From positions 9,277 to 73,276 of the IMG/VR virus record IMGVR_UViG_3300046736_000122: a DNA stretch of 64,000 nt; one strand, written 5' to 3'. A program made the translations under genes and the position numbers. This stretch comes from a virus. Within the stretch, counting starts at the first letter, position 1. The number at the start of each line of letters is the position of its first letter. Below, one piece after another: positions 514-30,486 of the stretch. The notes under the pieces were generated by a model, which worked only from the letters and a program-made list of their open reading frames with translations, made no database searches and had not been told where the DNA came from.

Positions 514-1088
514 TCGACCTTCGTTTCAACGCTTTGGCTGCGTGGCCTCACGGCAACACATGGGATCGCCGGTCGGAGTGGACGTTCAAGGCGTCATGGC
601 AGAACACGCTCGACCTCTTGGACCGTGAGTTGCGGCTACTCGATGCCGCAAACGTCATCCTTGGCGTGAACCTGCGGCCCGGAGACATCCGGTTGGATGG
701 GTGGCCTCGAAGCAACGCGGCTCGGCCGCTTCATCCGGGCGTGGAGTTGAGCTTCGACAGCCGCGCGATCGCCAAGCTCGACCCGATGGTGCGGCGCGGT
801 TTGGCGCTCGTGCGCGAGGCCGGTGGGGACTGGGGCAAGGCGCGCAAGGCTGCTCACCCTGACAACGGTGGCGAGCACCTGGACTTCGTAGCGATCCAGG
901 CCGCGGCAGACCCGGCGAAACGTCTCGTTTATGCGACGGATGCGTGCGAGCACTGGCAGCATAACGTCCGGTCGATCGCACTCGGCCTCGAAGCCTTGCG
1001 GGCCGTCGACCGGTACGGCATCTCGCGGCGCGGGGAGCAGTATGCGGGCTTTCGTGCCGCGCTCACATCGGGCGGTGCGCGGCCATGA
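510..1088 (+). CDS. Actinophage DnaJ-like protein with internal HPD motif
   Basis: DIRLDGWPR, WQHNVRSIALGLEALRAVDRYG, EQYAGF family motifs; KAAHPDNGG J-like motif. Confidence 0.75.
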   Translation: MIDLRFNALAAWPHGNTWDRRSEWTFKASWQNTLDLLDRELRLLDAANVILGVNLRPGDIRLDGWPRSNAARPLHPGVELSFDSRAIAKLDPMVRRGLALVREAGGDWGKARKAAHPDNGGEHLDFVAIQAAADPAKRLVYATDACEHWQHNVRSIALGLEALRAVDRYGISRRGEQYAGFRAALTSGGARP

Positions 1089-1459
1089 CCGATCTTGGAC
1101 CCCTGCTGGCCGCGGTAACCGACGAGTGGGAGCGCGGCAAGACGATCGCGGCGCGTGCCGGCATGGACAGTCGAACGGCAGGGCCGCGGCTCGCCGCGCT
1201 TGAGCGCGGCGGGTTCGTCAAGTCGAAGGGCACGCCGTGGGATGGGCCCGATCGTGGCGTCAAGTTGTACCGCCGCGGCCCGAACGCGCCGCCGCTCATC
1301 GTGCCGCCAACCGCCGAGCAGATCCTTGACGATGGTCTGCGCGGCAAGCTTCTTGCCATTGAGCTACACGACGCAACGGGCGACCCGTTCGACGCCGGGT
1401 TCATGGAATGCTGGCGCGAGATCAGCGCGTGGCTTGACGCTGCGAGGCCGCGGCCATGA
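1085..1459 (+). CDS. Winged-HTH DNA-binding protein
   Basis: KTIAARAGMDSRTAGPRLAALERGGFV HTH pattern; ATGA-coupled at both ends. Confidence 0.65.
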   Translation: MTDLGPLLAAVTDEWERGKTIAARAGMDSRTAGPRLAALERGGFVKSKGTPWDGPDRGVKLYRRGPNAPPLIVPPTAEQILDDGLRGKLLAIELHDATGDPFDAGFMECWREISAWLDAARPRP

Positions 1460-1644
1460 CCCCCGGCCCGTCACCAGCACTGGCCGCGCTCAACGCGGAG
1501 AAGGCACGTGAGAAAGCCAAGAGCCGCGCACTACAGGCCGCGGCGAAGGAGCATGCGGCCCGCGAGCTCGTCGAGCTTCGCGGCGAACAGGCGCGATTGA
1601 GGCGCGAGGCTGCTGAGCGCCGCGCCGCGAGGGCTGCGCTGTGA
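1456..1644 (+). CDS. Hypothetical coiled-coil protein
   Basis: Coupled overlaps at both ends; A/E/R-rich helix. Confidence 0.6.
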   Translation: MTPGPSPALAALNAEKAREKAKSRALQAAAKEHAARELVELRGEQARLRREAAERRAARAAL

Positions 1645-1883
1645 CCGTCGTCCAGATCCCGGCCGCGGACTGCTTGCGTCACCTGCACGCCATCGCGGCG
1701 CGGCACGAACTCACCGTCATTATGGCGCACTTCGAACCCAGTAGCGCCTCACCGTACCGCTGGCGGCTGACGGTTTCGGGCCGCGGCGGCATCGTCTACA
1801 GCGTGGCGATGGAGCGCGCCGGTGAGATGCCGGAGGCGGTCTACGCCGCGTGGCAGGCGTTCGTCAGCGGGGGCGTCACGTGA
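1641..1883 (+). CDS. Hypothetical protein
   Basis: GTGA overlaps at both ends. Confidence 0.6.
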   Translation: MTVVQIPAADCLRHLHAIAARHELTVIMAHFEPSSASPYRWRLTVSGRGGIVYSVAMERAGEMPEAVYAAWQAFVSGGVT

Positions 1884-2359
1884 AGCGCTCCGGGCTAAAG
1901 GCCGACCCGGCGAAGACGGCCGCGTTCGTGAAGCGTGGCCGCGGCAAGCTCAAGCGCACATCCCTGCCGCGCACCGTCGCGCTGAACAACCCGCCGCCAC
2001 GGCGCTCTGAGCTACCGGGCGCGCGCGGCTGGACGCAGCGGGTGTTCACGCTCTACGGCCGCGTCTGCGTCGTCTGCGGCGATCGAGCGACCGAAGCTCA
2101 TCACGTGGTCCCTCGCCACGTCGTGCTGTCCGCGCGCCATCTCAGCCTCGCGGAGCGCGAGGCTCTCGCCTACGATGCACGCAATGGAGCGCCTGTCTGC
2201 GGGCTCGGCACGCGCCATTCTTGCCACGCCAACCACGAAGCCGCGTCGCACCGGATCCCGTTCGACCGGTTGCCCGCGGGCGCTGTGGAGTGGGCGATCG
2301 AGCATGGCTTTCGGTCGCGCGTGATGGATCGTCGCGTCTACCCTCGGCAGGCGTCGTGA
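1880..2359 (+). CDS. HNH endonuclease
   Basis: CVVCG..EAHHVVP..N..PVC..CHANHE; GTG 1880 overlaps previous stop. Confidence 0.8.
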   Translation: MKRSGLKADPAKTAAFVKRGRGKLKRTSLPRTVALNNPPPRRSELPGARGWTQRVFTLYGRVCVVCGDRATEAHHVVPRHVVLSARHLSLAEREALAYDARNGAPVCGLGTRHSCHANHEAASHRIPFDRLPAGAVEWAIEHGFRSRVMDRRVYPRQAS

Positions 2360-3027
2360 GCCGCGCCGACCTCGCGATCCTCGTGCGCGCGGGAAGCCAC
2401 GCGTACGGCACTGCCCGGCCCGACTCCGACGATGACTACCGCGGCGTGTACCTCGCGCCCACCGTCGACCTGTACCGGCTGCGACGGCCTGCGGAAAGCT
2501 TCGACCGTCGGGACCCCGACGTCACGCTGTACGAGCTCGGGAAGTTCGCGACGCTTGCCGCCGCGGCCAACCCGACGGTGCTGGAGATCTTGTGGGCCGA
2601 GCCGCTGCACATCTCGCCAGCCGGGGTGATCCTTCGACTTCACCGCGACGTGTTCCTGAGCCGCCGCGCGCTGAAGACGTACGGCGGCTACGCGCGCCAG
2701 CAGTTGAGCAAGGCGACCAAGGGCATCGGTGGCTCGCGTGGCTCGGGGCATTCCCGCCGTGAGAAGTTCTTGCTGCACACGATCCGGCTTGCGGAGGCCG
2801 GGCTGCATCTGTTGCGTACGGGCGAGGTTCAGGTGCGCGTCCCGGACCCGGTCGGGCTCTGGGAGCGTGCGAACCGCGGCTTGGATGCCGTTGTGGCCGA
2901 GTTCGCGGACCTTGACGATCGCCTCGCGGCGGCGTCGGCATCGAGCCCGCTGCCGGAGCACCCCGACCTTGAGGCGATCGACCGGCTGCTGATCCTGTTG
3001 CGCCGAGACATCGGCGCGCGGCCATGA
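2356..3027 (+). CDS. Pol-beta-family nucleotidyltransferase (RlaP/YcgL-like)
   Basis: GSHAYG..PDSDDDYRGVY, ANPTVLEIL, HTIRL motifs. Confidence 0.85.
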   Translation: MSRADLAILVRAGSHAYGTARPDSDDDYRGVYLAPTVDLYRLRRPAESFDRRDPDVTLYELGKFATLAAAANPTVLEILWAEPLHISPAGVILRLHRDVFLSRRALKTYGGYARQQLSKATKGIGGSRGSGHSRREKFLLHTIRLAEAGLHLLRTGEVQVRVPDPVGLWERANRGLDAVVAEFADLDDRLAAASASSPLPEHPDLEAIDRLLILLRRDIGARP

Positions 3028-3308
3028 AGCGCGTCGTGCTCCTCTGTACTCGCCCCGCGTGCGGCCACGGGCCCGGCCGTCACGAAGCGGGCGGCGCATG
3101 TCAGGACTGCGCGTGCACCGGCTTCACGCTCGAAGAGCAGGTGCGACTGACGCGTTGCTCGGAATGCAAGCGGCGGCCGTCACGCGGCTACGTGCCGCAT
3201 GACCTTCGGCCGGGAGGCTGGGGCAACCATCGGGAGGGCTGCTCTCGCCGCGGGATGGCACCCGACGCACTTGAGCGCGAGTTGACATCGGGGCCGCGGC
3301 GATGCTGA
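3024..3308 (+). CDS. Cys/His-rich hypothetical protein
   Basis: CGH..HEAGGACQDCACTGF metal-binding motif; coupled start. Confidence 0.6.
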   Translation: MKRVVLLCTRPACGHGPGRHEAGGACQDCACTGFTLEEQVRLTRCSECKRRPSRGYVPHDLRPGGWGNHREGCSRRGMAPDALERELTSGPRRC

Positions 3309-3637
3309 GCCGTCCGCAGCCGCGCTGCCCTTCGTGCCGCTGGTTCCTCTCATTCGAGGCTATCGATCACTCATGGGTAGCCCGCTGCCAGAACAGGCCG
3401 GAAGCCTGCCCGGTCGATGTAGTGCCGCCGACGATCAACACGGCGCTCATCGAGTTCGTGCGCTCGACTGGCGACACGACGAGCGTTGCCGCGGCCGAGC
3501 ACTTCGGCTGGAGCGTCCCGAACGCGGTCAACCACCTGACGAAGCTGACAGCGCTGCGGATTCTTGACCGCCGTCGCGTCAACCCGGTGCGCGGCGGCAA
3601 GCGGTTCGTGTGGACGATCGCGGGGCCACGGCGATGA
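3302..3637 (+). CDS. Zn-finger + winged-HTH protein
   Basis: CPSC..C..C then AAEHFGWSVPNAVNHLTKL. Confidence 0.65.
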   Translation: MLSRPQPRCPSCRWFLSFEAIDHSWVARCQNRPEACPVDVVPPTINTALIEFVRSTGDTTSVAAAEHFGWSVPNAVNHLTKLTALRILDRRRVNPVRGGKRFVWTIAGPRR

Positions 3638-3900
3638 GCGCCGCGCGCGACCCCGGCTCGATGCGAACCGCTGCGGCCGTGCTGCGCGTGCTCGGCGACC
3701 AGCGTGACCAGCGCACGAACAACTCGATCGCGAAGCAGACCGGCCTTCACGCCGACCTGACGGCTGGCGCGCTGCGATCCCTCCGCGGGCAAGGTCTCGT
3801 CGACAGTGCCGATCCGATGGAGCGCGGCGATTACTTGTTGTGGTGGGCGACGCCGCTCGGCGTGTACTGCCGCGAGCTACTTGAGGCGGCGCCGCCATGA
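3634..3900 (+). CDS. Winged-HTH protein
   Basis: NSIAKQTGLHADLTAGALRSLRGQGLV; ATGA-coupled. Confidence 0.65.
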   Translation: MSAARDPGSMRTAAAVLRVLGDQRDQRTNNSIAKQTGLHADLTAGALRSLRGQGLVDSADPMERGDYLLWWATPLGVYCRELLEAAPP

Positions 3901-4421
3901 GTCTCGCGCTCGACATCGGCGATCGTGGCGCGGACATCTCGCCGTGCGGCCGGTACCGCTACACCCTCTGGCGGCGATGGGACATCGACCGGCCGATGGT
4001 GCTGTGGATCATGCTCAACCCGTCAACCGCGGACGCGACGGACGACGATCGCACCGTGGGCCGCTGTATCGACTTCGCGCGGCGCTGGGACATGGGCGGC
4101 ATCCGCGTCTGCAACCTGTACCCGTGGCGGGCGACCTACCCGAAGGATCTACCGAGCGGCCAAGAGGTCGGCGGCGCGCACACCGGGATCCTGTCGAAGA
4201 ACGATCACGCGATCTTGAGCGCGGCGAGCGACGCTGGCCGGATAATCGCCGCGTGGGGATCGAACGTCGGGCCATGGCCTATGCAGACCGCGCATGTCCG
4301 CGACCTGTTGCGCCACCGGCACGTTGAGGCGCTGCGCCTGACGAAGCATGGTCGGCCGTGGCATCCGTTGTACGTGCGCGGCGACGTGCAGCCCATCCCG
4401 TACTGGGAGCCGCGGCCATGA
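3897..4421 (+). CDS. DUF1643 domain protein
   Basis: YRYTLWRRW, WIMLNPSTAD, IIAAWG, PWHPLY signature. Confidence 0.9.
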   Translation: MSLALDIGDRGADISPCGRYRYTLWRRWDIDRPMVLWIMLNPSTADATDDDRTVGRCIDFARRWDMGGIRVCNLYPWRATYPKDLPSGQEVGGAHTGILSKNDHAILSAASDAGRIIAAWGSNVGPWPMQTAHVRDLLRHRHVEALRLTKHGRPWHPLYVRGDVQPIPYWEPRP

Positions 4422-4687
4422 TCGACGCGACGATCGCGATGCTGCGCGCCCGCCACGACGAACACGTAGCGCTCGTCGGAGTCGTCGCCGCACTGTTCTG
4501 CGATGACCTGCCCGCTGCCGTCACGCGGCTCGAGAACTGCCGCGATGCCGCCCGTGAGCACGCGAGGACGCTCAACTATCGGCACGACCGCCACGCGATT
4601 GCGATTGCGCGCAGTGTCGCGTCCGCGGCCGAAGAGCTGCTTCCCGGTGTGCGTCAACTCGCCGCGCGTGTGGAGCCGCGCCGATGA
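4418..4687 (+). CDS. Hypothetical protein
   Basis: ATGA-coupled at both ends. Confidence 0.6.
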   Translation: MIDATIAMLRARHDEHVALVGVVAALFCDDLPAAVTRLENCRDAAREHARTLNYRHDRHAIAIARSVASAAEELLPGVRQLAARVEPRR

Positions 4688-4908
4688 TCGTGCTGCAGAT
4701 CGACGGTGGCGCCGATGCCGAGGTTGTGCTGACTCAAGTCAAGTTCGCGGCCAAACGGTTCCCCGGCCGCCACCGGCTGAAGCTCGTCGTGGCGATGGCG
4801 AACGGTGAGGAGCGCCGCGTCACCTTCGGATGGGACTGGCGGTATGACGCTTCGCCGGCTTGCCTTGCTGCGCTGGCCGAGTTTGGCCGCGCGGGAGTCG
4901 AGGACTGA
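4684..4908 (+). CDS. Small protein resembling the C-terminal domain of DnaE (Pol III alpha)
   Basis: VKFAAKRFPGRHRLKL..RRVTFGWDWRYDASPACLAALAEFG pattern, recognised from memory. Confidence 0.5.
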   Translation: MIVLQIDGGADAEVVLTQVKFAAKRFPGRHRLKLVVAMANGEERRVTFGWDWRYDASPACLAALAEFGRAGVED

Positions 4909-5252: not shown

Positions 5253-7045
5253 GGACGTACGGCGAGATCCGCTACCGCGCGGCATCTGGCGGCCCAGACG
5301 GTCAGCGCGCGGCGTGGCAGATTATCGCGAGCCCCGATGTCCTCATGCGTCTCAAGCGGCTGTTCCCGCGCGCCGAAAAACGCCGCTCGGGATGGATCAC
5401 GCTGGAGCACACGCTCGAGGTCGCTCGTGATCTCGAATGGGTGCTGCAGCGCTGGCCGATGAAGGTCGCCGACGAGGACCGTGCACGGCTCGTGACCTCG
5501 ACCGCGGAGTACGTCGAGCGCCAAGACCTCGTCGAGTCGCTGCTGCGCGGCGACCGGCCGCACCTGCCCGGTGTGCTGACGCCCGCGCGCGAGCCCCGCG
5601 AGTACCAACTCATCGCGGCCGACCTGACGCTCGCGACCGGCCGCCTACTGCTCTGCGACGAGCTCGGGCTTGGCAAGACGATGAGCGGCCTGCTCGCGTT
5701 GCGTGACCCTGACCTGTTGCCGGCGCTCGTCGTCTGCCCGACGCATCTGCCGCAGCACTGGATGCGCGAGCTTGCGAAGACACTGCCGACGTTGCGCGCG
5801 CACATCATCCGGACCGGCAAGCCGTACGACCCCGCGAAGCGCCGCGAGATGAAGGGCCACGATCCCGACGTGCTCATCATCAACTACCACAAGCTGCGCG
5901 GCTGGGTGGACCATCTCGCCGGCCTCGTGAAAACGGTGATCTTCGACGAGGCGCAGGAGCTGCGCCGCGCCGATAGCGACAAGTACAAGGCGGCGGCCCG
6001 TGTCGCCGATCTCGCGCACGTCCGGATGGGGTTGACAGCCACGCCGATCTACAACTACGCGTCCGAGATTCACAACGTGCTCGCCGTCATCGCTCCCGAC
6101 GCGCTCGGGTCACGCGAGGAGTTCGCGCGCGAATGGGGCGGCTCGACGTACTGGACGGACAAGCTCACCGTGAAGGATCCGAAGGCGCTCGGCGCGCACC
6201 TACGCTCCGAAGGCGTGTTCCTGCGCCGCACCCGCGTTGAGGTTGGCCGCGAGCTCCCGGAGATCGTTCGTGTGCCGCACAACGTGGACGCCGACGAGGA
6301 TGAACTCGACCGGTTGCTCGCCGCCGGTGGCGCTGCGGCGCTCGCGGAAACGATCCTCCACTCGCAGGACCGCAAGGCGGTGTTCACGGCGTCGGGCGAG
6401 ATCGACATGCAGATGCGCCGCGCGACCGGTGTAGCGAAAGCACCCTACGTCGCGGCGTTCGTAGACCTCCTGTTGGAGAGCGAGCAGAAGGTCGTGCTGT
6501 TCGGCTGGCATCGCGACGTCTACACGATCTGGGGGACACGGCTCGCCGCGCACAACCCGGTCATGTTCACGGGCTCGGAGTCGTCGGCGCAGAAGGAACT
6601 CAACCGGGCACGATTCATCGGCGGCGAGGATCTCGAGCGCGCAGCCGCGGCTCACCAGCGTGGCTTCAAGGGCCGCTGGCGCGAGTTCGAGGATGCGACC
6701 GCCGAGAGCCGCGTCCTGATGATGAGCTTGCGCGCGGGCAGCGGCCTCGACGGGTTGCAGCAAGTCTGCAACGTCGGCGTGTTCGGCGAGCTTGACTGGT
6801 CACCGGGCGTTCACGATCAGTGCGAGGGCCGCTACCACCGCGACGGCCAGAGCGAGCCGAGCGTGTCGTACTTCCTCGTCAGCGACGTCGGCAGCGATCC
6901 CGTCGTCGCGGACGTGCTGAACCTGAAAGAGCAGGGCAGCCATCCAATCGTGGATCCGAACCGTGCGATGTTCGTCGCGGCGGATGTGAGCGACCGGATG
7001 CGCAAGCTCGCGGAGTCCGTGCTGAAGCGGCGGCGCGCGGCATGA
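5249..7045 (+). CDS. SNF2-family helicase
   Basis: DELGLGKT, VIFDEAQ, LTATP, GLDGLQ, QCEGRYHRDGQ; start GTG 5249. Confidence 0.9.
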   Translation: MRTYGEIRYRAASGGPDGQRAAWQIIASPDVLMRLKRLFPRAEKRRSGWITLEHTLEVARDLEWVLQRWPMKVADEDRARLVTSTAEYVERQDLVESLLRGDRPHLPGVLTPAREPREYQLIAADLTLATGRLLLCDELGLGKTMSGLLALRDPDLLPALVVCPTHLPQHWMRELAKTLPTLRAHIIRTGKPYDPAKRREMKGHDPDVLIINYHKLRGWVDHLAGLVKTVIFDEAQELRRADSDKYKAAARVADLAHVRMGLTATPIYNYASEIHNVLAVIAPDALGSREEFAREWGGSTYWTDKLTVKDPKALGAHLRSEGVFLRRTRVEVGRELPEIVRVPHNVDADEDELDRLLAAGGAAALAETILHSQDRKAVFTASGEIDMQMRRATGVAKAPYVAAFVDLLLESEQKVVLFGWHRDVYTIWGTRLAAHNPVMFTGSESSAQKELNRARFIGGEDLERAAAAHQRGFKGRWREFEDATAESRVLMMSLRAGSGLDGLQQVCNVGVFGELDWSPGVHDQCEGRYHRDGQSEPSVSYFLVSDVGSDPVVADVLNLKEQGSHPIVDPNRAMFVAADVSDRMRKLAESVLKRRRAA

Positions 7046-7055
7046 GAAAGACGTT

Positions 7056-7094
7056 GCCCCCCGCTTGCCAGTGGCTTGCGGGGGGCTGTAGTCT
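7056..7094 (+). promoter_or_regulatory. Sigma-A-like promoter overlapping a GC-rich inverted repeat
   Basis: TTGCCA 7065-70, 18 nt, TG-TAGTCT 7089-94; arms GCCCCCCGC 7056-64 / GCGGGGGGC 7078-86. Confidence 0.55.
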
Positions 7095-7160: not shown

Positions 7161-7859
7161 ATGCCGCAGGATCGTACCGTAGAAGACGGCGGCCACACAT
7201 CGGCCGCGCTGTTGGCCGCGCGAAGCTATGGCGCGGCGCCGCAGGTCATCGGCACGTTCGACCTCGAATGGTCGGAGTACATGCACTACCTCTACCTGCC
7301 GGTTCAGATGCCGGGGCACGAGGGGGTGCGCCTGCCGCCGAACCTGGAGTTCTTGCGAGCGATCGTCGAGCAGATCGTTATCAACGAGGCTCACGACGAC
7401 TACGTCTACGTGAGCGCCCGCCGGGGCTACGCGACACCCGGCAACCCGCTGAATCGGCCGGGCTGGCACGCGGACGGGTTCGGCACTCGCGACGTGAACT
7501 ACATCTGGCATGATGGCGGCGCGACGCTGTTCGCGGAGCACGACTTCGGCAGGGTCTCGCCGAACCATCTTGTGTCGATGCGGCAGTTCGCGGAGCGCGC
7601 TCGTGTGACGAACACCTACCCCGATCGCACGCTCATGCGGCTCGACCCGTTCGTGGTCCACGCGGCACCGGACATCGCACCACCGGGAGGCGAGCGCGCG
7701 TTCGTCAAGATCAGCCTGTCGGACTCGCGCTACAACCTGCGCGGCAACAGCCACAACCACGCGTTCGACTACGCGTGGCGGATGTGGGCGCGTGAGGAGA
7801 TCCGCAACGATCCGAGCTACGCGGACGGCGACGCTGGCCCGCAGGTCGCGCGGCCATGA
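7161..7859 (+). CDS. Putative 2OG-Fe(II) dioxygenase-like protein
   Basis: NRPGWHADGF (HxD), distal VVH, RAFVKIS; GAAAGGA upstream. Confidence 0.65.
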   Translation: MPQDRTVEDGGHTSAALLAARSYGAAPQVIGTFDLEWSEYMHYLYLPVQMPGHEGVRLPPNLEFLRAIVEQIVINEAHDDYVYVSARRGYATPGNPLNRPGWHADGFGTRDVNYIWHDGGATLFAEHDFGRVSPNHLVSMRQFAERARVTNTYPDRTLMRLDPFVVHAAPDIAPPGGERAFVKISLSDSRYNLRGNSHNHAFDYAWRMWAREEIRNDPSYADGDAGPQVARP

Positions 7860-8667: not shown

Positions 8668-8942
8668 GCACCATCGACATGGGCCACTCGCGCGTCGAGT
8701 ACCGCGCGGCGGCCGCCGACCTCGCGAACGCTGAGTGCAGCGTCCCGGAGGATCACCCGCACCTAGAGGCGATCGACGCGCTACCACTCATCTCTCCACA
8801 CGGCATCACGGCGAAGCTCAACGCGATGAGTCTCGACGGACTCGTGACGCTTTGGGACGGCGGCAACTGCTGGCCGAACGAATGGTCGCTGACCGACAAG
8901 GGCCGCGCAGCTATCGCGGCGGCTGACGGCACGCGACCATGA
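8664..8942 (+). CDS. Hypothetical protein
   Basis: ATGA-coupled at both ends. Confidence 0.6.
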   Translation: MSTIDMGHSRVEYRAAAADLANAECSVPEDHPHLEAIDALPLISPHGITAKLNAMSLDGLVTLWDGGNCWPNEWSLTDKGRAAIAAADGTRP

Positions 8943-9067
8943 GGCAGCTTGGATGGTGGCTCATGGGCTTACCGACCGGCCTGCGTGAGCCGTCGCCGTT
9001 CCTGCTGCGATGGGGTCCGTACCGGTGGGGTGCGTACCTCGCGAACCTGAGATGGACCCGGCCGTGA
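8939..9067 (+). CDS. Small Trp-rich hypothetical protein (42 aa)
   Basis: Manual translation MRQLGWWLMGLPTG...NLRWTRP; coupled start. Confidence 0.45.
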   Translation: MRQLGWWLMGLPTGLREPSPFLLRWGPYRWGAYLANLRWTRP

Positions 9068-9092
9068 AACGAGGGACCCGGCCGTGAAACGA
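9054..9092 (+). repeat. Tandem direct repeat, 2 copies of GGACCCGGCCGTGAAACGA
   Basis: Copies at 9054-9072 and 9074-9092. Confidence 0.9.
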
Positions 9093-18789: not shown

Positions 18790-19208
18790 GGCGCCTTGCC
18801 GCTCGCACTGGCCTGCGCCCGCCGACGATCGCCATCGTCGTGATTCTGCTCGTCGGGCTGACAAGCGTCGCCGTCGTCACGACCGTGTTGCGCTCCATCG
18901 ACCGCAACGCCGAGGCGATCGAGGTCGGCTGCCTTGTCGTTGTGCAGGTCGTGCGCGACTCGGGCGCCAACAGCGGCAAGCCGGTGCAGACCAAGGCCGG
19001 GCGTGCGCAGGCACGCATCACGGCGAGGTTCTATGCGACCCTGCTTGGGCAGATGTCGCCGAAGAGTCGTCGCGCTGTGCTGCGCGATCAAGCGATCGTG
19101 CGTCGGGCGGGGGGCGCGATCCCGGAGCCGCAGTGCAAGCGGATCGCGGACGACCCGGACAAGGTTCGGCGCGATACGTTGCAGACGCAATCAACCCGGA
19201 GGCCGTGA
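18786..19208 (+). CDS. Membrane protein, N-terminal TM and two Cys
   Basis: TTGA overlap; IAIVVILLVGLTSVAVV. Confidence 0.6.
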   Translation: MRRLAARTGLRPPTIAIVVILLVGLTSVAVVTTVLRSIDRNAEAIEVGCLVVVQVVRDSGANSGKPVQTKAGRAQARITARFYATLLGQMSPKSRRAVLRDQAIVRRAGGAIPEPQCKRIADDPDKVRRDTLQTQSTRRP

Positions 19209-19765: not shown

Positions 19766-19870
19766 GGCGGCACGTAGCCAATCCTGGAGGGCAGTCATGC
19801 CGATGTTGATGATGTTGAGCCGCGCCGTGCGCCGTGTCCCGTTGGACTGGCAGCACCCAGTGGCGCGGCC

Positions 19871-20341
19871 ATGAGCATCTACGCCACGTGGCTGTCCCTG
19901 AGCGCCGACGATCACGAGGACGGCTGCGCGGTCTACGTCGAGGATCCGCCCGGCTCGCACTGCTTCGAGTTCAGCGGCAAGCCGTGCGATTGTGGCACGC
20001 CGCGAGCACCACTCGTCTACGAGGGCTCACACGTGCTGCCGTCGAATGCCGATCGCCGTGGCGGGTGCATCGACGTGGCCGGGATACCGGACTTCATCGA
20101 GCGCGACGGTCGCGACGACGCCAAGGGCTCGGGGCTGAAGGATTGGCTACGGCTGTCTGTGATGAACGAGGAGTCAACGCTGCAGTACGAGGGCAAGTCA
20201 TACGTGCGTGGCGGCGACGCGGCCGTGGTGTTGGATCGCCGTGGCGTAGAGGAACTGCGCGACACGCTGACAGCGTGGCTTGACCGCGAGTCGATACCAG
20301 ACGAGAGGGAGTGCCCCGAGTGTGTCGAGGCGCGACAGTGA
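19871..20341 (+). CDS. Hypothetical protein
   Basis: Starts in CGGCCATGA; YEGSHVLP..IPDFI..WLRLSV. Confidence 0.7.
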   Translation: MSIYATWLSLSADDHEDGCAVYVEDPPGSHCFEFSGKPCDCGTPRAPLVYEGSHVLPSNADRRGGCIDVAGIPDFIERDGRDDAKGSGLKDWLRLSVMNEESTLQYEGKSYVRGGDAAVVLDRRGVEELRDTLTAWLDRESIPDERECPECVEARQ

Positions 20342-21709: not shown

Positions 21710-21912
21710 TCGTCGTCGCGGCTCTCATCGTCCTGGCGTACGCGGCGGTCATGCTGCTCGTGTTCGCGTTGTGCCGGGTGGCCGCGGAGAGTGACCGGCA
21801 AACGGTGTGCGTGCCGTTGGCCGTGGTGAGGTCGGGCGAGGGAGGCTGCGACGAGGACCGCAACTCGGTTGCGGCTGATCTCGCTCGACCTGACCACGGA
21901 GCACGGCCGTGA
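21706..21912 (+). CDS. Small membrane protein
   Basis: MIVVAALIVLAYAAVMLLVFALC TM; coupled at both ends. Confidence 0.6.
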   Translation: MIVVAALIVLAYAAVMLLVFALCRVAAESDRQTVCVPLAVVRSGEGGCDEDRNSVAADLARPDHGARP

Positions 21913-22208
21913 CGCGCGAAGAAGCGCGGATTGTGCTGCTCGAAGCCGTGCTCGATCAGGCGGTGCACCTGATCGAGTTTCTGCATGGCTGCCTGACGAG
22001 CGACGACATCTACGAATACGCGTATCCCGAGCAGACGTTGGCGAAGGTGGCGAGCGCTCGTGAGCTCGTGCCGGAGCGGCCGGTGTGTGTGCATGGGCGA
22101 CGGGATCCGGGGTGCGCGTCGTGCGTGTTTCACGTGGCGGAGCGTGGGCGGCAGGCTGAGGCGCGAGCAGTGCTGGGTGACGACTTCGACGGTGCGGTGC
22201 GGCCATGA
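21909..22208 (+). CDS. Hypothetical protein
   Basis: Coupled at both ends. Confidence 0.6.
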   Translation: MTREEARIVLLEAVLDQAVHLIEFLHGCLTSDDIYEYAYPEQTLAKVASARELVPERPVCVHGRRDPGCASCVFHVAERGRQAEARAVLGDDFDGAVRP

Positions 22209-24582: not shown

Positions 24583-24881
24583 CCACGTCAGAGCAGGACA
24601 AGATCATGGAGGCCCTCGCCGCTGAGCATGGTGCGGTGAAGGTGTTGCCGTTGCGCGGCACGACCGCTGTACTCGCATGCGGCTGGGCAGTTGACTCCGA
24701 CTCCCTGTGCGCGGAGTTGGCTCGCGGCCCGTGGTGGTACGTCCCGGCTGACCCTGCGACCGCGCCAGCGTTCGCTCACGAGGACGAGGTGCCGTTGCGC
24801 TACGCCACCGAGCAGGAGATCGCGGACGCGCTCGAGCAGGACGCGGTCCGTGAGCTTCTGTCGGCCGCGGGACTACGCTGA
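24579..24881 (+). CDS. Hypothetical protein
   Basis: ATGA overlap at 24579; ends SAAGLR. Confidence 0.6.
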   Translation: MTTSEQDKIMEALAAEHGAVKVLPLRGTTAVLACGWAVDSDSLCAELARGPWWYVPADPATAPAFAHEDEVPLRYATEQEIADALEQDAVRELLSAAGLR

Positions 24882-25092
24882 TGCCGACCGGTGGACGCAG
24901 CAGGCGTGACACAGCGAACCAGACCGCGGCGAAAATACGCAGCGCTGAGCGACGCAAGTGCCCGAAGTGCGACCGCAAAGCGGCGATGGTTCGCGTCGAG
25001 CCGCCGGTGCTGAAGGCGGAGTGGCCGGGCTCGGTGTCCGCGTACTGCCGCTGGTGCGGGCATGAGCGGTTCCGGTCGGCCGCGGGACTACG
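24860..25092 (+). repeat. 18-bp direct repeats GTCGGCCGCGGGACTACG bracketing one gene
   Basis: Copies at 24860-24877 and 25075-25092. Confidence 0.85.
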
Positions 25093-25099
25093 GCCATGA
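24881..25099 (+). CDS. Zn-ribbon protein
   Basis: CPKC..CRWCG; ends SAAGLRP. Confidence 0.65.
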   Translation: MPTGGRSRRDTANQTAAKIRSAERRKCPKCDRKAAMVRVEPPVLKAEWPGSVSAYCRWCGHERFRSAAGLRP

Positions 25100-25308
25100 G
25101 CACCGATGGACCTCGCAGTCGCGTTTTCCGTCAGGTCGTGTCGATGGAGGTCGTCTGGACCGTCGATCCCGGCGAGGAGTTGCCGCACACAGACTGGGAA
25201 GCTGATGTCCGAGATGCGGTGCTCGGCCACTCGATCGGGCCCGGCACGGCGGTACTGCCCTGCTACGGCTCGGTGTCCGAGGTCGAAGAGCTTGAGCCGC
25301 GGCCATGA
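25096..25308 (+). CDS. Hypothetical protein
   Basis: CGGCCATGA at both ends. Confidence 0.6.
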   Translation: MSTDGPRSRVFRQVVSMEVVWTVDPGEELPHTDWEADVRDAVLGHSIGPGTAVLPCYGSVSEVEELEPRP

Positions 25309-25535: not shown

Positions 25536-25715
25536 TGTCTACATCGTCGTGCGTGGCCGACGCGTCGGCCACGCGTGGGTCGAGTCAACGATCTTCAACG
25601 ACGCGTGGATTTCGCATGGTGACGCGGACGGGGTAGGCACGGTCACCGAGATCCGTGTGCAACGACTGGTGCTCCGTCCCGACTTGGGGCTGGCGCCGCA
25701 TGAGGACCCGCGGCC

Positions 25716-25976
25716 ATGATCCCGAACCGCGACTACGGTCAGCCGCCGCCCGGCGGCATGGTGTACACGCCCGAGCAGACCGCGGACTTTGCTGCGGCAG
25801 CGAAGGCGCGCGAGATGGCCGCGGTGCTAGGCCGGTATGCGTCCAACCGCGAGTTCGCGGGCCGGGGGGAAGTGGAGGCGCCTCGTTCTGCTGCGGTCGC
25901 CCGTGCTGACGCTCGCGCGGCCCTCCATCTGCATCCCGAGCTACTCGCGATCCTCGAAGGCGGCGGGGTGGAGTAG
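25716..25976 (+). CDS. Hypothetical protein
   Basis: Starts in CGGCCATGA. Confidence 0.55.
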   Translation: MIPNRDYGQPPPGGMVYTPEQTADFAAAAKAREMAAVLGRYASNREFAGRGEVEAPRSAAVARADARAALHLHPELLAILEGGGVE

Positions 25977-26189: not shown

Positions 26190-26203
26190 AGGCGAGGCGA
26201 CCG

Positions 26204-26962
26204 ATGGCGAGTGACCCGGAGGACCGCTGGACCTGCGTCGATCACGGCATCGCCGACTGCGAGGACTGTGGCCAGTGGCACGACGCGGCCAAGGCGGCCT
26301 CAAGCGACTACGAATGCCATATCTCGGCCCTTACGGCCGAGCGAGACGCGGCCTCGGCGCGCGAGGACAGCTATCGCGGGGAAACGGATGTGTTGCGCGT
26401 GCGTCTCGACAAGGCCCGTGACGAGGCGCGTGTCGCCGAGGCCGATCGAGACGCGCTACGAGCCGACCTGGACGCGGCGCGCGAGGCGATCGCCGCCATC
26501 GATCCCGTGAGCGCCGCGGTGTTCCTGGCGCTGCGGGCGCAACGCGACACGGCGCAAGGGCAGGTCACCACCCTGCTTGAGGCCATCGCGGCCACCCAAA
26601 ACGGCCATGCAGATACCGCAGCGTACGCGCGAGCGCTGGGCAACCTGCGAGCTGTCGCGGCAGAGATCCGAGAGGTCATCGATCTGTGCGGTATGGCGGC
26701 GGAGGTTGAGTGCTGCTGCTCTAGCGATCGTTGCGACGATCTGCCGCGCGAGGCTGTAAGGTTCGCCGCGTGCAAGCACGCGCGGCAGTCAACAGGTCCA
26801 TCCGCGGCTGATGGCAGCCCCGATGAAACGGCCCACGCCGCCCGCGCGCATGGTCGCGCTGCTGGCGAAGGAGAAGGCGGAGATCCTCACATCGGGCTGC
26901 AAGCCGACGGTCACGGACTTCTACGAGGCGTGGGAGCGCTGTTGGGAGATCATCGTCCTTGA
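26204..26962 (+). CDS. Coiled-coil hypothetical protein (3' end uncertain)
   Basis: Heptad-rich core; last ~50 codons overlap the next ORF. Confidence 0.5.
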   Translation: MASDPEDRWTCVDHGIADCEDCGQWHDAAKAASSDYECHISALTAERDAASAREDSYRGETDVLRVRLDKARDEARVAEADRDALRADLDAAREAIAAIDPVSAAVFLALRAQRDTAQGQVTTLLEAIAATQNGHADTAAYARALGNLRAVAAEIREVIDLCGMAAEVECCCSSDRCDDLPREAVRFAACKHARQSTGPSAADGSPDETAHAARAHGRAAGEGEGGDPHIGLQADGHGLLRGVGALLGDHRP

Positions 26963-27260
26963 GCACGGCTGGGCTCATGCCACGCGGCTGAGGCGGTCGA
27001 TGCGTCAGGCACAGGACGAAACCAAGGAGGAGTGCTGCGCGGCGTTCCTCGGCGCACCGACGCCGTTCTCGTTCGCCGCGGGCCGGCTGGCGGGCGCGGC
27101 CAGCGGCATGTGCCTGGAGCTCGAACCCGAGCAACTCGGCAAAGCCCTACTCGCGGCCTTCGCGTACGTCGAGCTCGACCCCGACGACGAGGCGCTGTCG
27201 ATCCGGTCGTCCGACGCGGCTTACGACTTCGTGACCAACCGATCGGAGATCGCAGCATGA
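26811..27260 (+). CDS. Hypothetical protein
   Basis: Good GC3 bias; ATGA-coupled to next gene. Confidence 0.6.
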   Translation: MAAPMKRPTPPARMVALLAKEKAEILTSGCKPTVTDFYEAWERCWEIIVLEHGWAHATRLRRSMRQAQDETKEECCAAFLGAPTPFSFAAGRLAGAASGMCLELEPEQLGKALLAAFAYVELDPDDEALSIRSSDAAYDFVTNRSEIAA

Positions 27261-27964
27261 GCAAGCCGAAGCTCGCGGCCGTACCGCGAGAGCAGGAGTG
27301 GCTGAACCCGGCAGAACGCGACGAACTCCGGGCGCTCGAGTCCGCTATCGAACGCGGGCTCAAGACATTCATGGAGACAGGCGAGGCGCTCGCACGAGTC
27401 CGCGATCGTCGCCTCTACCGCGAGGGTCATGAAACCTTCGAGCAGTATTGCCAGGCGCGCTGGGGCTTCCGCCGGGAAGCGGCCGACCGGTATGTGCGGG
27501 CCGCGGCGGTCGTGCCGGTCCTCAATCCAACTGGATTGGCCCCACCGTCGACTGAGAGCGTGGCGCGTGAGCTCGCGCCGCTGCTGCCCGAGCCCGACAA
27601 GATGCGCGCTGTCTGGGTGGCCGTCGGACCGGACGCAACGGCAGCGCAGGTTCGTGCCGAGGTCAAGCGGCTAACCGCGCCGACGGTCGCGGACGAGCTG
27701 CCGGCCGAACCGCCGCGGCACCCGGGCGACGACATCCGGTTCTCTCGCATCGAGAACGCGGCTGACAGCCTCGTCACGCTGCCGGCACTCGACAAGCTCA
27801 TCTGGCCGGTCGAGCCGGGGGACGTCCGGCGGATGGATCTGGCGTTCGCGTTCTTGACGGAGTGGCTGCCGGCGGCGAAGGCGGCCTGGAAGGCGCACAA
27901 GGCGCTGTTGGCGAAGGCGGCGCGTCAGGAGCGCGACGCCAAGCGCGGGCTGAGGGCCGCGTGA
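27257..27964 (+). CDS. Putative DNA-binding protein (DUF3102-like N-terminus)
   Basis: IERGLKTFMETGEALARVRDRRLYR..TFEQYCQARWG. Confidence 0.7.
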   Translation: MSKPKLAAVPREQEWLNPAERDELRALESAIERGLKTFMETGEALARVRDRRLYREGHETFEQYCQARWGFRREAADRYVRAAAVVPVLNPTGLAPPSTESVARELAPLLPEPDKMRAVWVAVGPDATAAQVRAEVKRLTAPTVADELPAEPPRHPGDDIRFSRIENAADSLVTLPALDKLIWPVEPGDVRRMDLAFAFLTEWLPAAKAAWKAHKALLAKAARQERDAKRGLRAA

Positions 27965-28034
27965 TGGGGAAGGCGGGGAACACCGTCACGTTCGGGAAGC
28001 CGCGCGCAGTCGAGGCGATATGGGGGCCGCGGCC

Positions 28035-28298
28035 ATGATGGTCAACCCTCCAATTCAGCTGGAGCCCGGCTACTTCGAGTTTCGCGTGAACTGGGACGCC
28101 GCGGACCTGATGCAGATGACCGGCGCGCAGTTGGACAGGCTGCATGAGGCGGTCGGGGCGTTCGTCGTCATCGCGGCTGAGGTAGGCGACGGCTACGACA
28201 AGGCGGCGATGCTGAAAGCGGCAGAAGAGGGGCCTAACCTTGTGCCGCGTCGCCACGCGGTCATGGAAAACGTGGTCGTGGTCGGCGACACGGGCTAG
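28035..28298 (+). CDS. Hypothetical protein
   Basis: Starts in CGGCCATGA. Confidence 0.55.
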   Translation: MMVNPPIQLEPGYFEFRVNWDAADLMQMTGAQLDRLHEAVGAFVVIAAEVGDGYDKAAMLKAAEEGPNLVPRRHAVMENVVVVGDTG

Positions 28299-28305
28299 TC
28301 AGGCC

Positions 28306-28950
28306 ATGGGCGAGCCATCGGACGCGGCAAGCCATGCGCCGGTCCCCGGCAAGTGCAACGCGCGCAAGAAAGCCAGCCGCGGCGGCGGCCTCTGCGGAGC
28401 GCCTGCCGGGCGCGGCACGGACCACCCAGGGATTGGGGCATGTTCGGCTCACCTGGGCAACGTGGCGAACCACAGGACTGCCGCGGATCGCGAGCAGGCC
28501 CGGCAAGCCTGTGCGCTCTTCGGCCTCGCGACGAGCGCGGCGATCGATCCGGCGGAAGCGCTGCTTGGCGAGGTCACTCGCACGCACATGGCGATCTTGT
28601 ACTACGAGGCCGAGATCGCGCTGTTGCCCGAGGATGAGCAGGGCCGCTTCCGTTTGTACCGCCAGACGCGGCATGCGTCGGGCGAGAAGACGGGGGAGGC
28701 GAAGCCGCATGTTCTCGTGGTGTTGTGGATGGCGGAGCGCAAGCATCTCGCGGAGGTGACGTCGAAGGCGTTGAGTGCGGGGGTGGCGCAGCGGACATTG
28801 GAGTTGCAGGAGGGGATCGCGCGGCAGGTGTCGTCGATTTTGGCGCGGCAGGCTCGGTTGCTTGGGCATGACCCGGATTCTGCTGCGGTGCGGTTGGCGT
28901 CGCGGCAGGCGTTGGAGCTTGAGGCGGGGGACGGAAGAGCCGCGGCGTAG
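28306..28950 (+). CDS. Probable terminase small subunit
   Basis: KCNA..CGAPAGRGTDHPGIGACSAHLG motif of actinophage TerS-type proteins; upstream of TerL. Confidence 0.7.
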   Translation: MGEPSDAASHAPVPGKCNARKKASRGGGLCGAPAGRGTDHPGIGACSAHLGNVANHRTAADREQARQACALFGLATSAAIDPAEALLGEVTRTHMAILYYEAEIALLPEDEQGRFRLYRQTRHASGEKTGEAKPHVLVVLWMAERKHLAEVTSKALSAGVAQRTLELQEGIARQVSSILARQARLLGHDPDSAAVRLASRQALELEAGDGRAAA

Positions 28951-28977
28951 AACCTTCGCTCTAGGGCGCGCGAAGGA

Positions 28978-29334
28978 TCAGCCTGGCGTTACCGCGTAGC
29001 GCTTGCGGACACCCTCGCTTGTCCGCCCAAGCGCCACCGCGATCATGTGCCACGACCGCCCGGCCTCACGCGCCTGTGCCACCAGCACCGGCTCGCGCGC
29101 GTCCTGCCGATCACGGTCTGCGGCGAGCGCGGCGAGCTCGTCAAGGGGATCGGTGGCGGCCTGCATCGTGTCGCGGATGTGCCGGCACGTCCCGGTCGCC
29201 TCGCACGTGCAAGTCGCGTTCTCGCCGGCGATGGTCACGAGGTGCATGTGCCCGGGCCGCGAGCGGGATTGTGCGACGTAGACTTGTGCGCCGTGCAGGC
29301 GTTGGATTGGTGCGTTGATGTCGAGCAGCGTCAT
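28978..29334 (-). CDS. SWIM Zn finger + HTH protein
   Basis: ATCTCEATGTCRHI; AREAGRSWHMIAVALGRTSEGVRKRY. Confidence 0.75.
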   Translation of the reverse strand: MTLLDINAPIQRLHGAQVYVAQSRSRPGHMHLVTIAGENATCTCEATGTCRHIRDTMQAATDPLDELAALAADRDRQDAREPVLVAQAREAGRSWHMIAVALGRTSEGVRKRYAVTPG

Positions 29335-29528
29335 CGCTCGCTCTCTCTGCGCGCCTGGCTGTCGGCGACGAAATCTTCCCAGCCGGCTGGCGGCGCGATC
29401 TCGCCCTTCAGCACTCGGACACCGTCGCTGGTGCTGCCGCATGCCTTGATGAACGTGCCGTAGCGCTCGATCACATCGTCCAGAGCCAGCTGGATGTAGT
29501 AGGTGATGCCCTTCCCAGTAGATTCCAT
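29331..29528 (-). CDS. Hypothetical protein, leaderless
   Basis: ATG 6 nt after TAGAAT; ATGA-coupled to the HTH gene. Confidence 0.7.
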   Translation of the reverse strand: MESTGKGITYYIQLALDDVIERYGTFIKACGSTSDGVRVLKGEIAPPAGWEDFVADSQARRESER

Positions 29529-29534
29529 GCACCT

Positions 29535-29563
29535 ATTCTAGTTGGCAACTGCGTGCGGGTCAA
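29535..29563 (-). promoter_or_regulatory. Sigma-A promoter TTGACC-N17-TAGAAT with palindrome AGTTGcCAACT
   Basis: Near-consensus boxes; palindrome 29540-29550 in spacer. Confidence 0.8.
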
Positions 29564-29595
29564 GGCTGTAACTGGCCTCGGCTGCCGGTCGACCG

Positions 29596-29604
29596 TGGTA
29601 TAAC
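29596..29604 (+). promoter_or_regulatory. Extended -10 TGGTATAAC, divergent leaderless promoter
   Basis: ATG 29612 lies 7 nt downstream. Confidence 0.55.
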
Positions 29605-29611
29605 ACGATGT

Positions 29612-29839
29612 ATGCCAATCGAACTCACGAGCGAGCAAGCCGCGGCGATCGGCAATGTGCTCGAAACGGCGGACAACTACTGCTGTGTCTGCGCGGCGAA
29701 CCTCGCGGCGGAGATGGCCGCGATCTGTCCGGGCCACGACTGGCTTGTCCTCGTCGGCGGGGAGCATGACGACGACGGGCCGCTTGTCGATCTGGCCTCG
29801 GGTGGCCGCGTGGTCTACGGGGCGCCGGATGGCGCGTAA
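29612..29839 (+). CDS. Hypothetical protein
   Basis: Leaderless start; ADNYCCVCA. Confidence 0.6.
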   Translation: MPIELTSEQAAAIGNVLETADNYCCVCAANLAAEMAAICPGHDWLVLVGGEHDDDGPLVDLASGGRVVYGAPDGA

Positions 29840-30074
29840 GCAACTCGGGATGGTCGACGACGACCTGCTCGCCCGGGTCGATGCGTGCGCGCTCACGCTC
29901 GGGCAGACGCGGCGCGTGTTCACGGAGCGGGCGTTGGAGGCGTGGCTGAAGGATTCGGAGGGCGATCCTGCCGCGGTCATGGAGCGCCGGATCCTCGCGG
30001 CCCGTGCCGCCCGCGAGACTGCGGCGATGGCCCGTCAGCGCAAACTCAACGAGGCGAAGCGAGGGAAGACATGA
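29829..30074 (+). CDS. Ribbon-helix-helix (CopG-like) protein
   Basis: VDDDLLARVDACA..GQTRRVFTERALEAWL. Confidence 0.7.
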   Translation: MARKQLGMVDDDLLARVDACALTLGQTRRVFTERALEAWLKDSEGDPAAVMERRILAARAARETAAMARQRKLNEAKRGKT

Positions 30075-30113
30075 GTGCCTTGCCGGCCACGAAGCCGATC
30101 CCGAAGGGGAAGC

Positions 30114-30486
30114 GATGAGCCGCGCCGCGCAGGTCTGGACGCGCTTCAACCCGCCGCGCGAGCCGATGCAGATGGCGGCTGTTGCGCCGCAAGACTTCGC
30201 GTGGTTCGCGTTCGCAGCTGACGAGCAGGTCCAGGCGGTCGAGGTCCGCGACGAAGGTGAGCGGCACGTCACGGTCACGCACGCGGCAGGCGACTGCATC
30301 GGCGCGGCTGGAATGCTGCGCCATCGCCTCCTCCAGTGGCACAACACCGACTACGGCCTGACGGACGAGCAGCTGGTTGCCTGCGCGGCCGAAGCGCGCG
30401 CCTACGTCGGCGGCAGACGGCTGAGTTGGACGACGATCGCGGCTGACCGTATTCGCGCCGCAGCCGAACCTCCGGCGCGGCCATGA
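30114..30486 (+). CDS. Hypothetical protein (start approximate)
   Basis: MSRAAQVW..; ends ARP in CGGCCATGA overlapping TerL start. Confidence 0.55.

Follow-up and report, generated by a model that had tools for sequence, protein, structure and literature searches.

A lineage-specific, start-associated sequence at the stop/start joints of accessory genes in a high-GC phage

The DNA analysed here (the window) is a 64,000-nucleotide stretch of a phage genome, bases 9277-73276 of the 73,276-bp virus record IMGVR_UViG_3300046736_000122 of IMG/VR, with 68% GC and with nearly all of its genes on the + strand; its first 30 kb, referred to below as the early region, hold replication and accessory genes. 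Our analysis revealed that the 9-mer CGGCCATGA, in which the stop codon of one gene overlaps the start codon of the next, is a non-random motif that is conserved at the nucleotide level, is locked to strand and reading frame, is associated with gene starts and is specific to one lineage. The explanation that we tentatively favour, at somewhat less than an even chance, is a lineage-specific, start-associated joint for the coupled translation of accessory genes that lack a Shine-Dalgarno (SD) sequence; the effect on translation is what we infer.

Recurrence of the motif at gene joints

Exact copies of CGGCCATGA number 19 in the window, 15 on the + strand and 4 on the - strand, whereas 100 dinucleotide-preserving shuffles averaged 1.02 copies, peaked at 4 and never reached 19. 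A preceding reading made from the letters alone (the sequence-only reading) had placed the motif at 13 positions between 1080 and 30486; all of them were recovered, and at each the CGG-CCA-TGA frame closes an open reading frame (ORF) while the overlapping ATG opens another of 58-550 amino acids (aa). The upstream gene is convincing at 11 of the 13 sites, and at 19866 and 28030 it is represented only by an ORF of about 25 codons with a weak coding score. The form CGCGGCCATGA, previously described as the usual one, indeed occurs at 10 of the 13 sites and in 11 of the 15 + strand copies genome-wide. Two + strand copies outside joints, at 37991 and 53440, and the four on the - strand had been overlooked; the former, which lie in frame within genes, are probably background, and the latter are all within genes as well. 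No exact copy was found in an intergenic or promoter region of the window. Among the variants reported by the same reading, those at 21904, 8934, 19200, 3892 and 3629 are real joints, and those at 9059 and 9079 turned out to belong to an intergenic tandem repeat.

A logo built from 30 sites in three genomes gave the consensus S-C-G-CGGCC-ATG-A with conservation confined to positions -8 to +3, the flanks displaying only the periodicity of GC at third codon positions, which follows the frame of the stop on the upstream side and that of the start on the downstream side. The trailing A, which follows CGGCCATG in 15 of 19 + strand copies, is part of the motif: among the sites of the type CGGCCATG[C/G/T] in the window genome and its closest relative, one of ten resembles a gene start, and at this single site the upstream stop lies one codon further on.

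The codon-aware null model multiplied the probability of CCA given an NNA codon (0.090) by that of CGG (0.020), which yields 0.0018 per ATGA joint. CGGCCA ends 9 of the 29 called + strand genes whose stop lies in ATGA (binomial P = 2e-18), which favours enrichment; the sequence-only reading had proposed a count against codon-shuffled controls. Genes were called with a codon log-odds score trained on long ORFs and not with a standard gene finder, and this home-made caller overlooked 4 of the 13 ORFs upstream of the listed motif sites. In the same calls the motif is tied to ATG starts rather than to GTG starts.

A scan with the large terminase (TerL) identified two complete relatives, one of 67 kb (G001, TerL 78-79% identical) and one of 73 kb with terminal repeats (G007, TerL 67% identical), the further relatives being several fragments. 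G001 carries 14 coding-strand copies of the motif and 4 copies on the opposite strand; 8 of the 14 overlap a real upstream ORF, and two more are start-associated without an overlapping gene, with a stop or a mini-ORF directly upstream. Compared with 15 coding-strand copies in the window genome, there are 2 in G007, none in G003, G008 and G009, and 1 in the fragment G002, where it sits at the TerL joint. With a strict detector, CGGCCA ended 6 of 18 ATGA joints in the window genome and 4 of 20 in G001, 1 of 32 in five other relatives combined (Fisher P = 0.009 for the window genome and G001 against these five), and 0 of 7 in 216 kb of a metagenome-assembled genome (MAG) of a 72% GC bacterium; all of these counts are subsets, because joints with short or weakly scoring ORFs were missed. 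The bacterial comparison, also suggested beforehand, thus agrees with enrichment in the phage, with the reservation that this MAG is not known to be the host. Since relatives and bacterial control lack the enrichment, the motif is a property of one small lineage; as judged from the genomes compared, it characterizes neither high-GC overlaps as such nor a wide range of hosts. G007, which is without this standard, carries ACCCGATGA five times on its coding strand and once on the other, and the 16-nt joint GGAGCACCCGATGACG twice, which could amount to a weaker standard joint peculiar to that phage.

Chance, or the plain codon bias of ATGA overlaps in a genome of 68% GC, could be invoked in view of the four non-coding-strand copies in each of the two phages, of the in-frame copies at 37991 and 53440, which resemble background, and of high-GC bacterial MAGs that hold 39-145 copies per genome (both strands) against 19-46 of the reversed control pattern. 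The probability that it produced the joints is nevertheless negligible: shuffling and the codon-aware binomial both speak against it, and the motif stands at 1 of 32 ATGA joints in relatives of similar GC versus 10 of 38 in the window genome and G001, with none among the seven of the bacterial sample. For the 13 joints this explanation is refuted.

Outside the lineage, a megablast search of INPHARED with a 20-kb query gave no match, the best TerL tblastn hit being 40% identical; no prophage was found in cellular genome contigs by the TerL scan (best match 49%, in a Thermoleophilaceae MAG), and the best match in a scan of metagenome contigs reached 42%. With no close deposited or cellular relative, the host can only be presumed to be a soil bacterium of high GC content. 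The 87-aa protein encoded at 28035-28298, used as a query, matched G001 alone. Viral contigs with two motif copies 340-370 nt apart occur at no fewer than 118 loci; the ten multi-copy contigs inspected besides G001 held tandem repeats, in-frame repeats of tape-measure-like genes and copies on the non-coding strand. In an unrelated viral contig of 49% GC, an SD-like GGAGAA or GGAA precedes CCGGCCATGA at four gene starts (5203, 5556, 9850 and 12369), so that the same CGGCC-ATG-A core stands there behind an SD sequence. Seven soil and rhizosphere DNA runs contain parts of the region. Four metagenome runs of soil or rhizosphere, each from a different study, contained short contigs identical to parts of window positions 19500-31000 (0 differences in the listed pieces), indicating that the phage or near-identical strains recur in such habitats. 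In the small share of literature matches to the 9-mer that was inspected, only primer or vector sequences appeared, which does not allow the motif to be called undescribed.

Nucleotide-level conservation and a proposed role in translation of the downstream gene

The dipeptide with which the joint closes the upstream ORF raises the alternative that selection acts on the protein, either through slow termination at proline with subsequent tagging by transfer-messenger RNA (the SsrA system) or through an Arg-Pro C-terminus that marks the protein for degradation or recognition. It is established that a proline before the stop slows termination, and the Arg-Pro endings pointed out by the sequence-only reading are present in 13 window proteins, two of these upstream ORFs being only about 25 codons long. 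The codons, however, tell against selection of this kind. Arginine is encoded by CGG at 13 of 13 sites in a genome that uses CGG for 24% and CGC for 53% of its arginines (P = 1e-8), and in our gene calls Arg-Pro ends 10 of 29 genes with ATGA stops, 2 of 30 with GTGA stops and none of 35 with non-overlapping stops; it is scarce in the last two classes even though the preferred proline codon is CCG. The three Arg-Pro joints of the window genome and G001 that lack CGG use CGA or AGG and never CGC or CGT, and the one-base variants of the motif alter the residues, encoding Gln-Pro, Pro-Pro or Arg-Arg. Moreover, at G001 sites 3233 and 11253 the motif is kept though no upstream protein ends in it, at 3233 after a separate TGA. 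Because of codon usage, stop-class bias, residue-changing variants and sites without an upstream protein, the Pro-stop or tagging explanation was rejected, and protein-level selection is highly improbable. The motif is conserved as nucleotides and not as amino acids, and the Arg-Pro tail is a by-product of CGG-CCA read in the other frame.

Analysis of translation signals showed that SD pairing at the motif starts is not above the random level. The mean duplex energy with the anti-SD tail, taken over the 20 nt before the start, was -5.6 for the 13 motif starts and -5.0 for random positions, in comparison with -6.7 for other early NTGA starts and -8.1 for the non-overlapping starts of late genes. 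No promoter-like or terminator-like site was found on any joint in a search for sigma-70 consensus promoters and terminators, the counts being at shuffle level, which fits long polycistronic early units. The stop/start overlap on one mRNA that termination-reinitiation requires is present at 13 of 13 window sites and at 8 of 14 G001 sites. The absence of the motif from head and tail gene joints, emphasized in the sequence-only reading, holds true yet carries little weight, as the late region has a single true ATGA joint (56379), its joints being mostly GTGA overlaps or TAG stops embedded in an SD sequence. A standard joint of the late genes, with the TAG stop inside the SD (TAGGAG or TAGGAGG) followed after 6-9 nt by ATG, is seen at the stops ending at 38973, 39366 and 50585.

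Comparison with G001 connects the motif to the gene that it opens. The two phages have their structural genes in common (64-79% nucleotide identity by blastn), while their early regions are intensely mosaic, and the motif joints lie in the former, not in the syntenic late region. At 3019, 21701, 22200, 25300, 25711 and 28030 (6 of 30 starts of early high-scoring segment pairs), homology with G001 sets in at the motif or within it, and what precedes it is unrelated; the motif stays with the upstream gene once, at 25091. Of ten window joints with a G001 counterpart, four keep the motif exactly, two nearly and four not at all; it is kept at four orthologous starts though three of the four upstream genes are unrelated. 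The motif thus behaves as part of the start region of the downstream gene, and one that turns over; no single gene needs it.

These observations are best accommodated by the non-SD reinitiation signal, one of three possibilities raised by the sequence-only reading, in that the signal is nucleotide-level, ATG-specific, linked to the downstream gene and accompanied by SD pairing at random level; its effect on translation is the part that we infer, together with the identity of whatever reads the motif. The element would extend from eight bases upstream of the ATG (S-C-G-C-G-G-C-C) through the start codon to the following A, the last base of the upstream TGA, and would function as the translation-initiation region of the downstream gene. 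On terminating the upstream ORF at UGA, a ribosome would restart on the overlapping AUG with no need for an SD sequence of the downstream gene's own. The conserved bases might be read by a factor particular to the lineage, or they might be a frozen standard of its gene pool; confinement of the element to one small lineage makes either of these probable in preference to a general host signal.

Several results weigh against this explanation. Folding of 90-nt windows predicted no RNA structure shared by the joints, and the start codon is predicted to be only slightly more open at motif joints than at control joints (0.62 versus 0.43 unpaired). Complementarity to 16S rRNA, a check put forward earlier, did not bear out a pairing signal: with two MAGs in which distant TerL relatives occur supplying the 16S as stand-ins for the host, pairing of the motif to the 3' tail was unremarkable (14-52% of random genome 12-mers pair as well), and the longest perfect complement, of 7 nt, falls at two internal conserved sites and therefore cannot explain lineage specificity. 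The motif is GC-rich and, to our knowledge, does not resemble an initiation enhancer described so far; there are early-region NTGA joints that work without it, and it is missing from 4 of the 10 joints compared between the window genome and G001. Pfam revealed no candidate reading factor among about 80 proteins scanned, the gene calls behind the joints are our own, and the sequencing runs listed as containing the phage include no RNA run.

A different function for the same sites would be that of an operator, a 12-nt target at which a phage or host protein or a small RNA sets or shuts off an early accessory regulon, acting either on mRNA, as a translational operator at the start codon like those of T4 RegA, or on DNA in the manner of stoperators. 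An asymmetric, lineage-specific site in one orientation, with about a dozen copies limited to non-structural genes, would suit such a regulon, and so would a sequence conserved beyond the needs of start and stop codons and kept at four orthologous starts despite unrelated upstream genes at three of them. We nevertheless regard an operator as distinctly unlikely. An operator at the start codon could do without the overlapping stop, but of 10 CGGCCATG[C/G/T] sites a single one is a start; there are no intergenic or promoter copies, the four - strand copies all being within genes; and regulon membership is poorly kept between the two phages (4 exact of 10). The Pfam scan of about 80 proteins, mostly ORFans without a family, detected no integrase, repressor or RNA-binding family, a point of little force given so many ORFans.

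Possible gene exchange at the joints and gene content of the window

The third possibility raised beforehand, a crossover site, would make the 9-15-nt joint a microhomology for RecT-type annealing or replication slippage by which whole genes move as in-frame, expression-ready cassettes, so that the abundance of the motif would reflect its spread by gene exchange rather than a role in translation. Three cases fit it. Between the gene 24573-24881 (G001 orthologue ending at 10586) and the conserved gene starting at 25305 (10951 in G001), the window has genes for 72-aa and 70-aa proteins, and their place is taken in G001 by a 123-aa gene that is unrelated (no blastp hit); this replaced cassette is bounded on either side by a motif copy, the left one within a 27-nt island of identity that ends two bases past the motif. 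The 72-aa gene, absent from G001, is furthermore flanked by an 18-nt direct repeat (24860-24877 and 25075-25092) that ends in the joint, so that it looks like an insertion, or its absence from G001 like a deletion between the repeats. Finally, the joint at 28030 looks like a chimera of two G001 motif copies, its left 18 nt matching the site at 15409 and its right 22 nt that at 15753, between which G001 has a 115-aa gene with no homologue in the window. The setting of the joints in the highly mosaic early region, the recurrence of the 15-nt form GAGCCGCGGCCATGA at four non-homologous joints in three genomes, and a RecT recombinase and a PD-(D/E)XK nuclease encoded just upstream of the window point in the same direction.

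The expected enrichment of breakpoints at the motif was, however, not seen. In the early region, breakpoints fall on 5 of 6 informative motif joints and on 13 of 16 informative non-motif NTGA joints, the ORF thresholds of the count having removed five motif joints out of 13; as almost all early joints are breakpoints, the test did not discriminate. Homology boundaries at non-motif joints are equally sharp, 0-7 nt from the start codon, and selection on joints with a 4-nt overlap can explain this precision without a special site. The motif accompanies the downstream gene six times and the upstream gene once, which a symmetric linker would not predict, and the extra 9 nt of identity at 28030 exceed chance only marginally by our own estimate (about 210 site pairs, S-C-G consensus). 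Lengths of 9-12 nt are also short for RecT-type annealing. No motif-to-motif joint was found in contigs from four metagenome runs, a weak test with short contigs of low depth; of 24 listed loose contig ends, one (21905) fell on a variant joint and none on an exact joint, and the same contigs, as short, identical fragments only, yielded no usable strain variants. Taken as the primary cause of the motif, a recombination linker is doubtful.

The coupled-translation joint and the linker are not mutually exclusive. Their combination, a self-propagating "plug-and-play" adaptor in which a 9-15-nt joint couples any pair of genes and at the same time serves RecT annealing for in-frame gene swaps, seems to us rather unlikely. 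If it were true, the lineage would maintain a standard interface for gene cassettes; a cassette role would also bear on why the mosaic boundaries of phages match gene boundaries exactly and would offer a natural design for stacking genes without promoters or ribosome-binding sites.

Three short stretches that are non-coding or lie at boundaries (19746-19803, 23831-23888 and 7035-7211) are 90-95% identical to G001 amid unrelated DNA and are probably promoters or terminators common to the lineage. The features located in this work are listed in Table 1.

Table 1. Positions of the joint motif, its variants and neighbouring features (window coordinates unless stated otherwise)
Position	Strand	Feature	Genes or context	Comparison or remark
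1080..1088	+	exact joint	510-1088 (ends Arg-Pro-stop) / 1085-1459	
1451..1459	+	exact joint	1085-1459 / 1456-1644	G001 keeps the gene order, without the motif
3019..3027	+	exact joint	RlaP-family gene 2356-3027 / Cys-rich gene 3024-3308	G001 homology starts within motif
3629..3637	+	one-mismatch variant CGGCGATGA	joint 3302-3637 / 3634-3900	
3892..3900	+	one-mismatch variant CCGCCATGA	joint 3634-3900 / 3897-4421	
4413..4421	+	exact joint, 15-nt form GAGCCGCGGCCATGA	DUF1643 gene 3897-4421 / 4418-4687	
5249-7045		SNF2 helicase gene	Pfam	
7035..7045	+	GCGCGGCATGA, motif minus one C	ends the SNF2 gene	kept in G001
7851..7859	+	exact joint	7161-7859 / 7856-8059	
8934..8942	+	one-mismatch variant CGACCATGA	ends gene 8664-8942	
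9051..9090	+	2 x 20-nt tandem repeat	intergenic; holds the "variants" 9059 and 9079	no gene joint
12024-13457		DnaB gene	Pfam	
13476-15791		helicase-methylase fusion	helicase and N6/N4 methylase, Pfam	
19200..19208	+	variant AGGCCGTGA	joint 18786-19208 / 19205-19336	
19866..19874	+	exact motif	opens gene 19871-20341, upstream of TnpB	upstream ORF of about 25 codons, coding score 0.3
20338-21507		TnpB-like gene	OrfB_IS605, Cas12f1-like TNB	
21494-21709	+	small ORF	overlaps the 3' end of the TnpB-like gene	weak coding score
21701..21709	+	exact joint	small ORF 21494-21709 / membrane-like gene 21706-21912	G001 homology starts within motif
21904..21912	+	GTG variant CGGCCGTGA	real joint 21706-21912 / 21909-22208	
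22200..22208	+	exact joint	21909-22208 / 22205-22381	one-mismatch form in G001
24860..24877	+	18-nt direct repeat, first copy	end of gene 24573-24881	
25075..25092	+	18-nt direct repeat, second copy	extends into the 25091 motif	
25091..25099	+	exact joint	72-aa Zn-ribbon-like gene 24881-25099 / 25096-25308	within the 27-nt island identical to G001; downstream genes unrelated
25300..25308	+	exact joint, 15-nt form	25096-25308 / 25305-25535	G001 keeps motif and downstream gene; upstream gene unrelated
25711..25719	+	exact joint	25480-25719 / 25716-25976	kept at the orthologous G001 start, preceded there by a non-coding gap containing a 6-codon ORF
28030..28038	+	exact joint	25-codon ORF 27961-28038 / 28035-28298	
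30478..30486	+	exact joint	30115-30486 / TerL gene 30483-32135	motif also in G002; not in G001, G003, G007, G008
30483-32135	+	large terminase (TerL)	downstream: portal with intein, capsid gene, tail genes	
37991..37999	+	exact copy, no joint	structural gene 37399-38973	ATG in frame
53440..53448	+	exact copy, no joint	gene 51708-53603	ATG in frame
record 5069-6310 and 7510-8796		RecT-family recombinase and PD-(D/E)XK nuclease	immediately upstream of the window	

Besides the replication genes, the early region contains dozens of small ORFs without a Pfam family. The TnpB-like gene is preceded by a 156-aa ORF without a family; the segment 19871-21507 is absent from G001 and has motif copies at both of its ends (19866 and 21701), and the small ORF 21494-21709 may instead be the RNA region of the TnpB element. 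A hairpin with 15-nt arms (7056-7086) follows the SNF2 gene downstream of GCGCGGCATGA. The tandem repeat at 9051 is followed by a hairpin with a 10-bp stem (9051-9131), inside an intergenic gap of 264 nt, positions 9078-9205 being 87% identical in G001; the stretch 9051-9131 is possibly a regulatory or origin element. A weak match to C-5 cytosine methylases lies at 22769-23533, and no link was found between this gene or the fusion at 13476-15791 and the GGCC contained in the motif. In the portal gene (32869-36204, Portal_Mu family) an intein splicing domain occupies part of the C-terminal half; the G001 counterpart of the region is about 1.2 kb shorter, which suggests that the intein is absent there. 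Record positions 1-9300, upstream of the window, also encode an M23 peptidase, an SLT-like gene and, on the minus strand, a pentapeptide-repeat protein (438-1316). No tRNA genes were found in the window genome, G001 or G007, and no Rfam families in the window.

Comparison with known systems

Four-base ATGA and GTGA stop/start overlaps are a common feature of packed operons, and reinitiation by the terminating ribosome is expected at them. Unlike the joints described here, ordinary overlaps have no fixed upstream sequence, and the relatives and the high-GC bacterium use many different last codons. The stoperators of Cluster A mycobacteriophages and the operators of T4 RegA are cases in which many asymmetric sites of one orientation, at gene ends or starts, are read by one phage protein. 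RegA targets are AU-rich start regions with a known binding protein, in contrast to the GC-rich motif of the present phages. Stoperators lie in short intergenic spaces of both genome arms and also have a known binding protein, whereas the present sites are not intergenic; exact phasing with both stop and start distinguishes the present motif from stoperators and RegA sites alike. The asymmetric, one-orientation stoperators are mentioned in the Cluster K study (PMC3203893).

With regard to mosaicism, boundary "linker" sequences have been proposed for lambdoid phages, where short shared sequences at gene boundaries guide module exchange; they concern other phages, other sequences and intergenic positions, as opposed to a stop/start joint. 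The prevailing view for actinobacteriophages is illegitimate recombination followed by selection, and our breakpoint count cannot distinguish this from the linker idea. The cassette idea is modelled on the PeSL cassettes of T4-type phages, intergenic early promoters with terminator stem-loops; there, close relatives differ by insertions, deletions and replacements that are accounted for by recombination between PeSL copies (Arbiol et al. 2010, PMC2839356). Both systems consist of conserved short elements flanking small, non-essential ORFan genes in hyperplastic regions; the present joints differ in having no promoter-like or terminator-like site and no shared hairpin, so that any action would be exerted at the translation joint. 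Indels or replacements of the PeSL type bounded by the motif amount to two or three cases, without enrichment over other joints and with one full-length close relative for comparison. If the adaptor combining coupling and exchange were real, it would be the translational counterpart of the PeSL cassettes and would give a functional explanation for start-associated sequences generally.

The closest described system is that of the start-associated sequences (SAS) of Cluster K mycobacteriophages, of which the present element is, by resemblance, an analogue and not a member. According to the published descriptions, SAS are 13-bp sequences with an SD core, located 3-7 bp upstream of the start, mostly in front of genes preceded by a gap exceeding 50 bp; half of them are accompanied on the upstream side by a 17-bp inverted repeat (Pope et al. 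2011, PMC3203893; PMC12699233); their function is presented as still unproven in a 2025 survey (PMC12699233). By these descriptions, both elements are short and asymmetric, occur in about 11-19 copies per genome nearly all in one orientation, are limited to the non-structural half and to the starts of genes from different families with a strong ATG bias, and are absent from other phages, their number varying between sub-lineages. In the window this corresponds to 15 copies on the + strand versus 4 on the - strand, 13 of them at joints within 1080-30486 and two in frame in late genes. The SAS consensus GGGATAGGAGCCC (with up to 2 deviations), on the other hand, bears no resemblance to S-C-G-CGGCC-ATG-A. 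The present motif, unlike SAS, is without an SD, abuts and includes the ATG and the overlapping TGA, and stands in 4-nt overlaps without a gap; an associated inverted repeat was not seen in the folded 90-nt windows.

The phage pair provides a second, unrelated example of lineage-specific repeats at gene starts, with an architecture that is simpler and more constraining than that of SAS: both the start codon and the upstream stop lie within the element, which has no SD and writes a fixed dipeptide onto unrelated proteins. This stop-plus-start arrangement makes possible a clean comparison of synonymous, non-synonymous and stop-moving changes, which could tell translational couplers, regulator sites and recombination interfaces apart.

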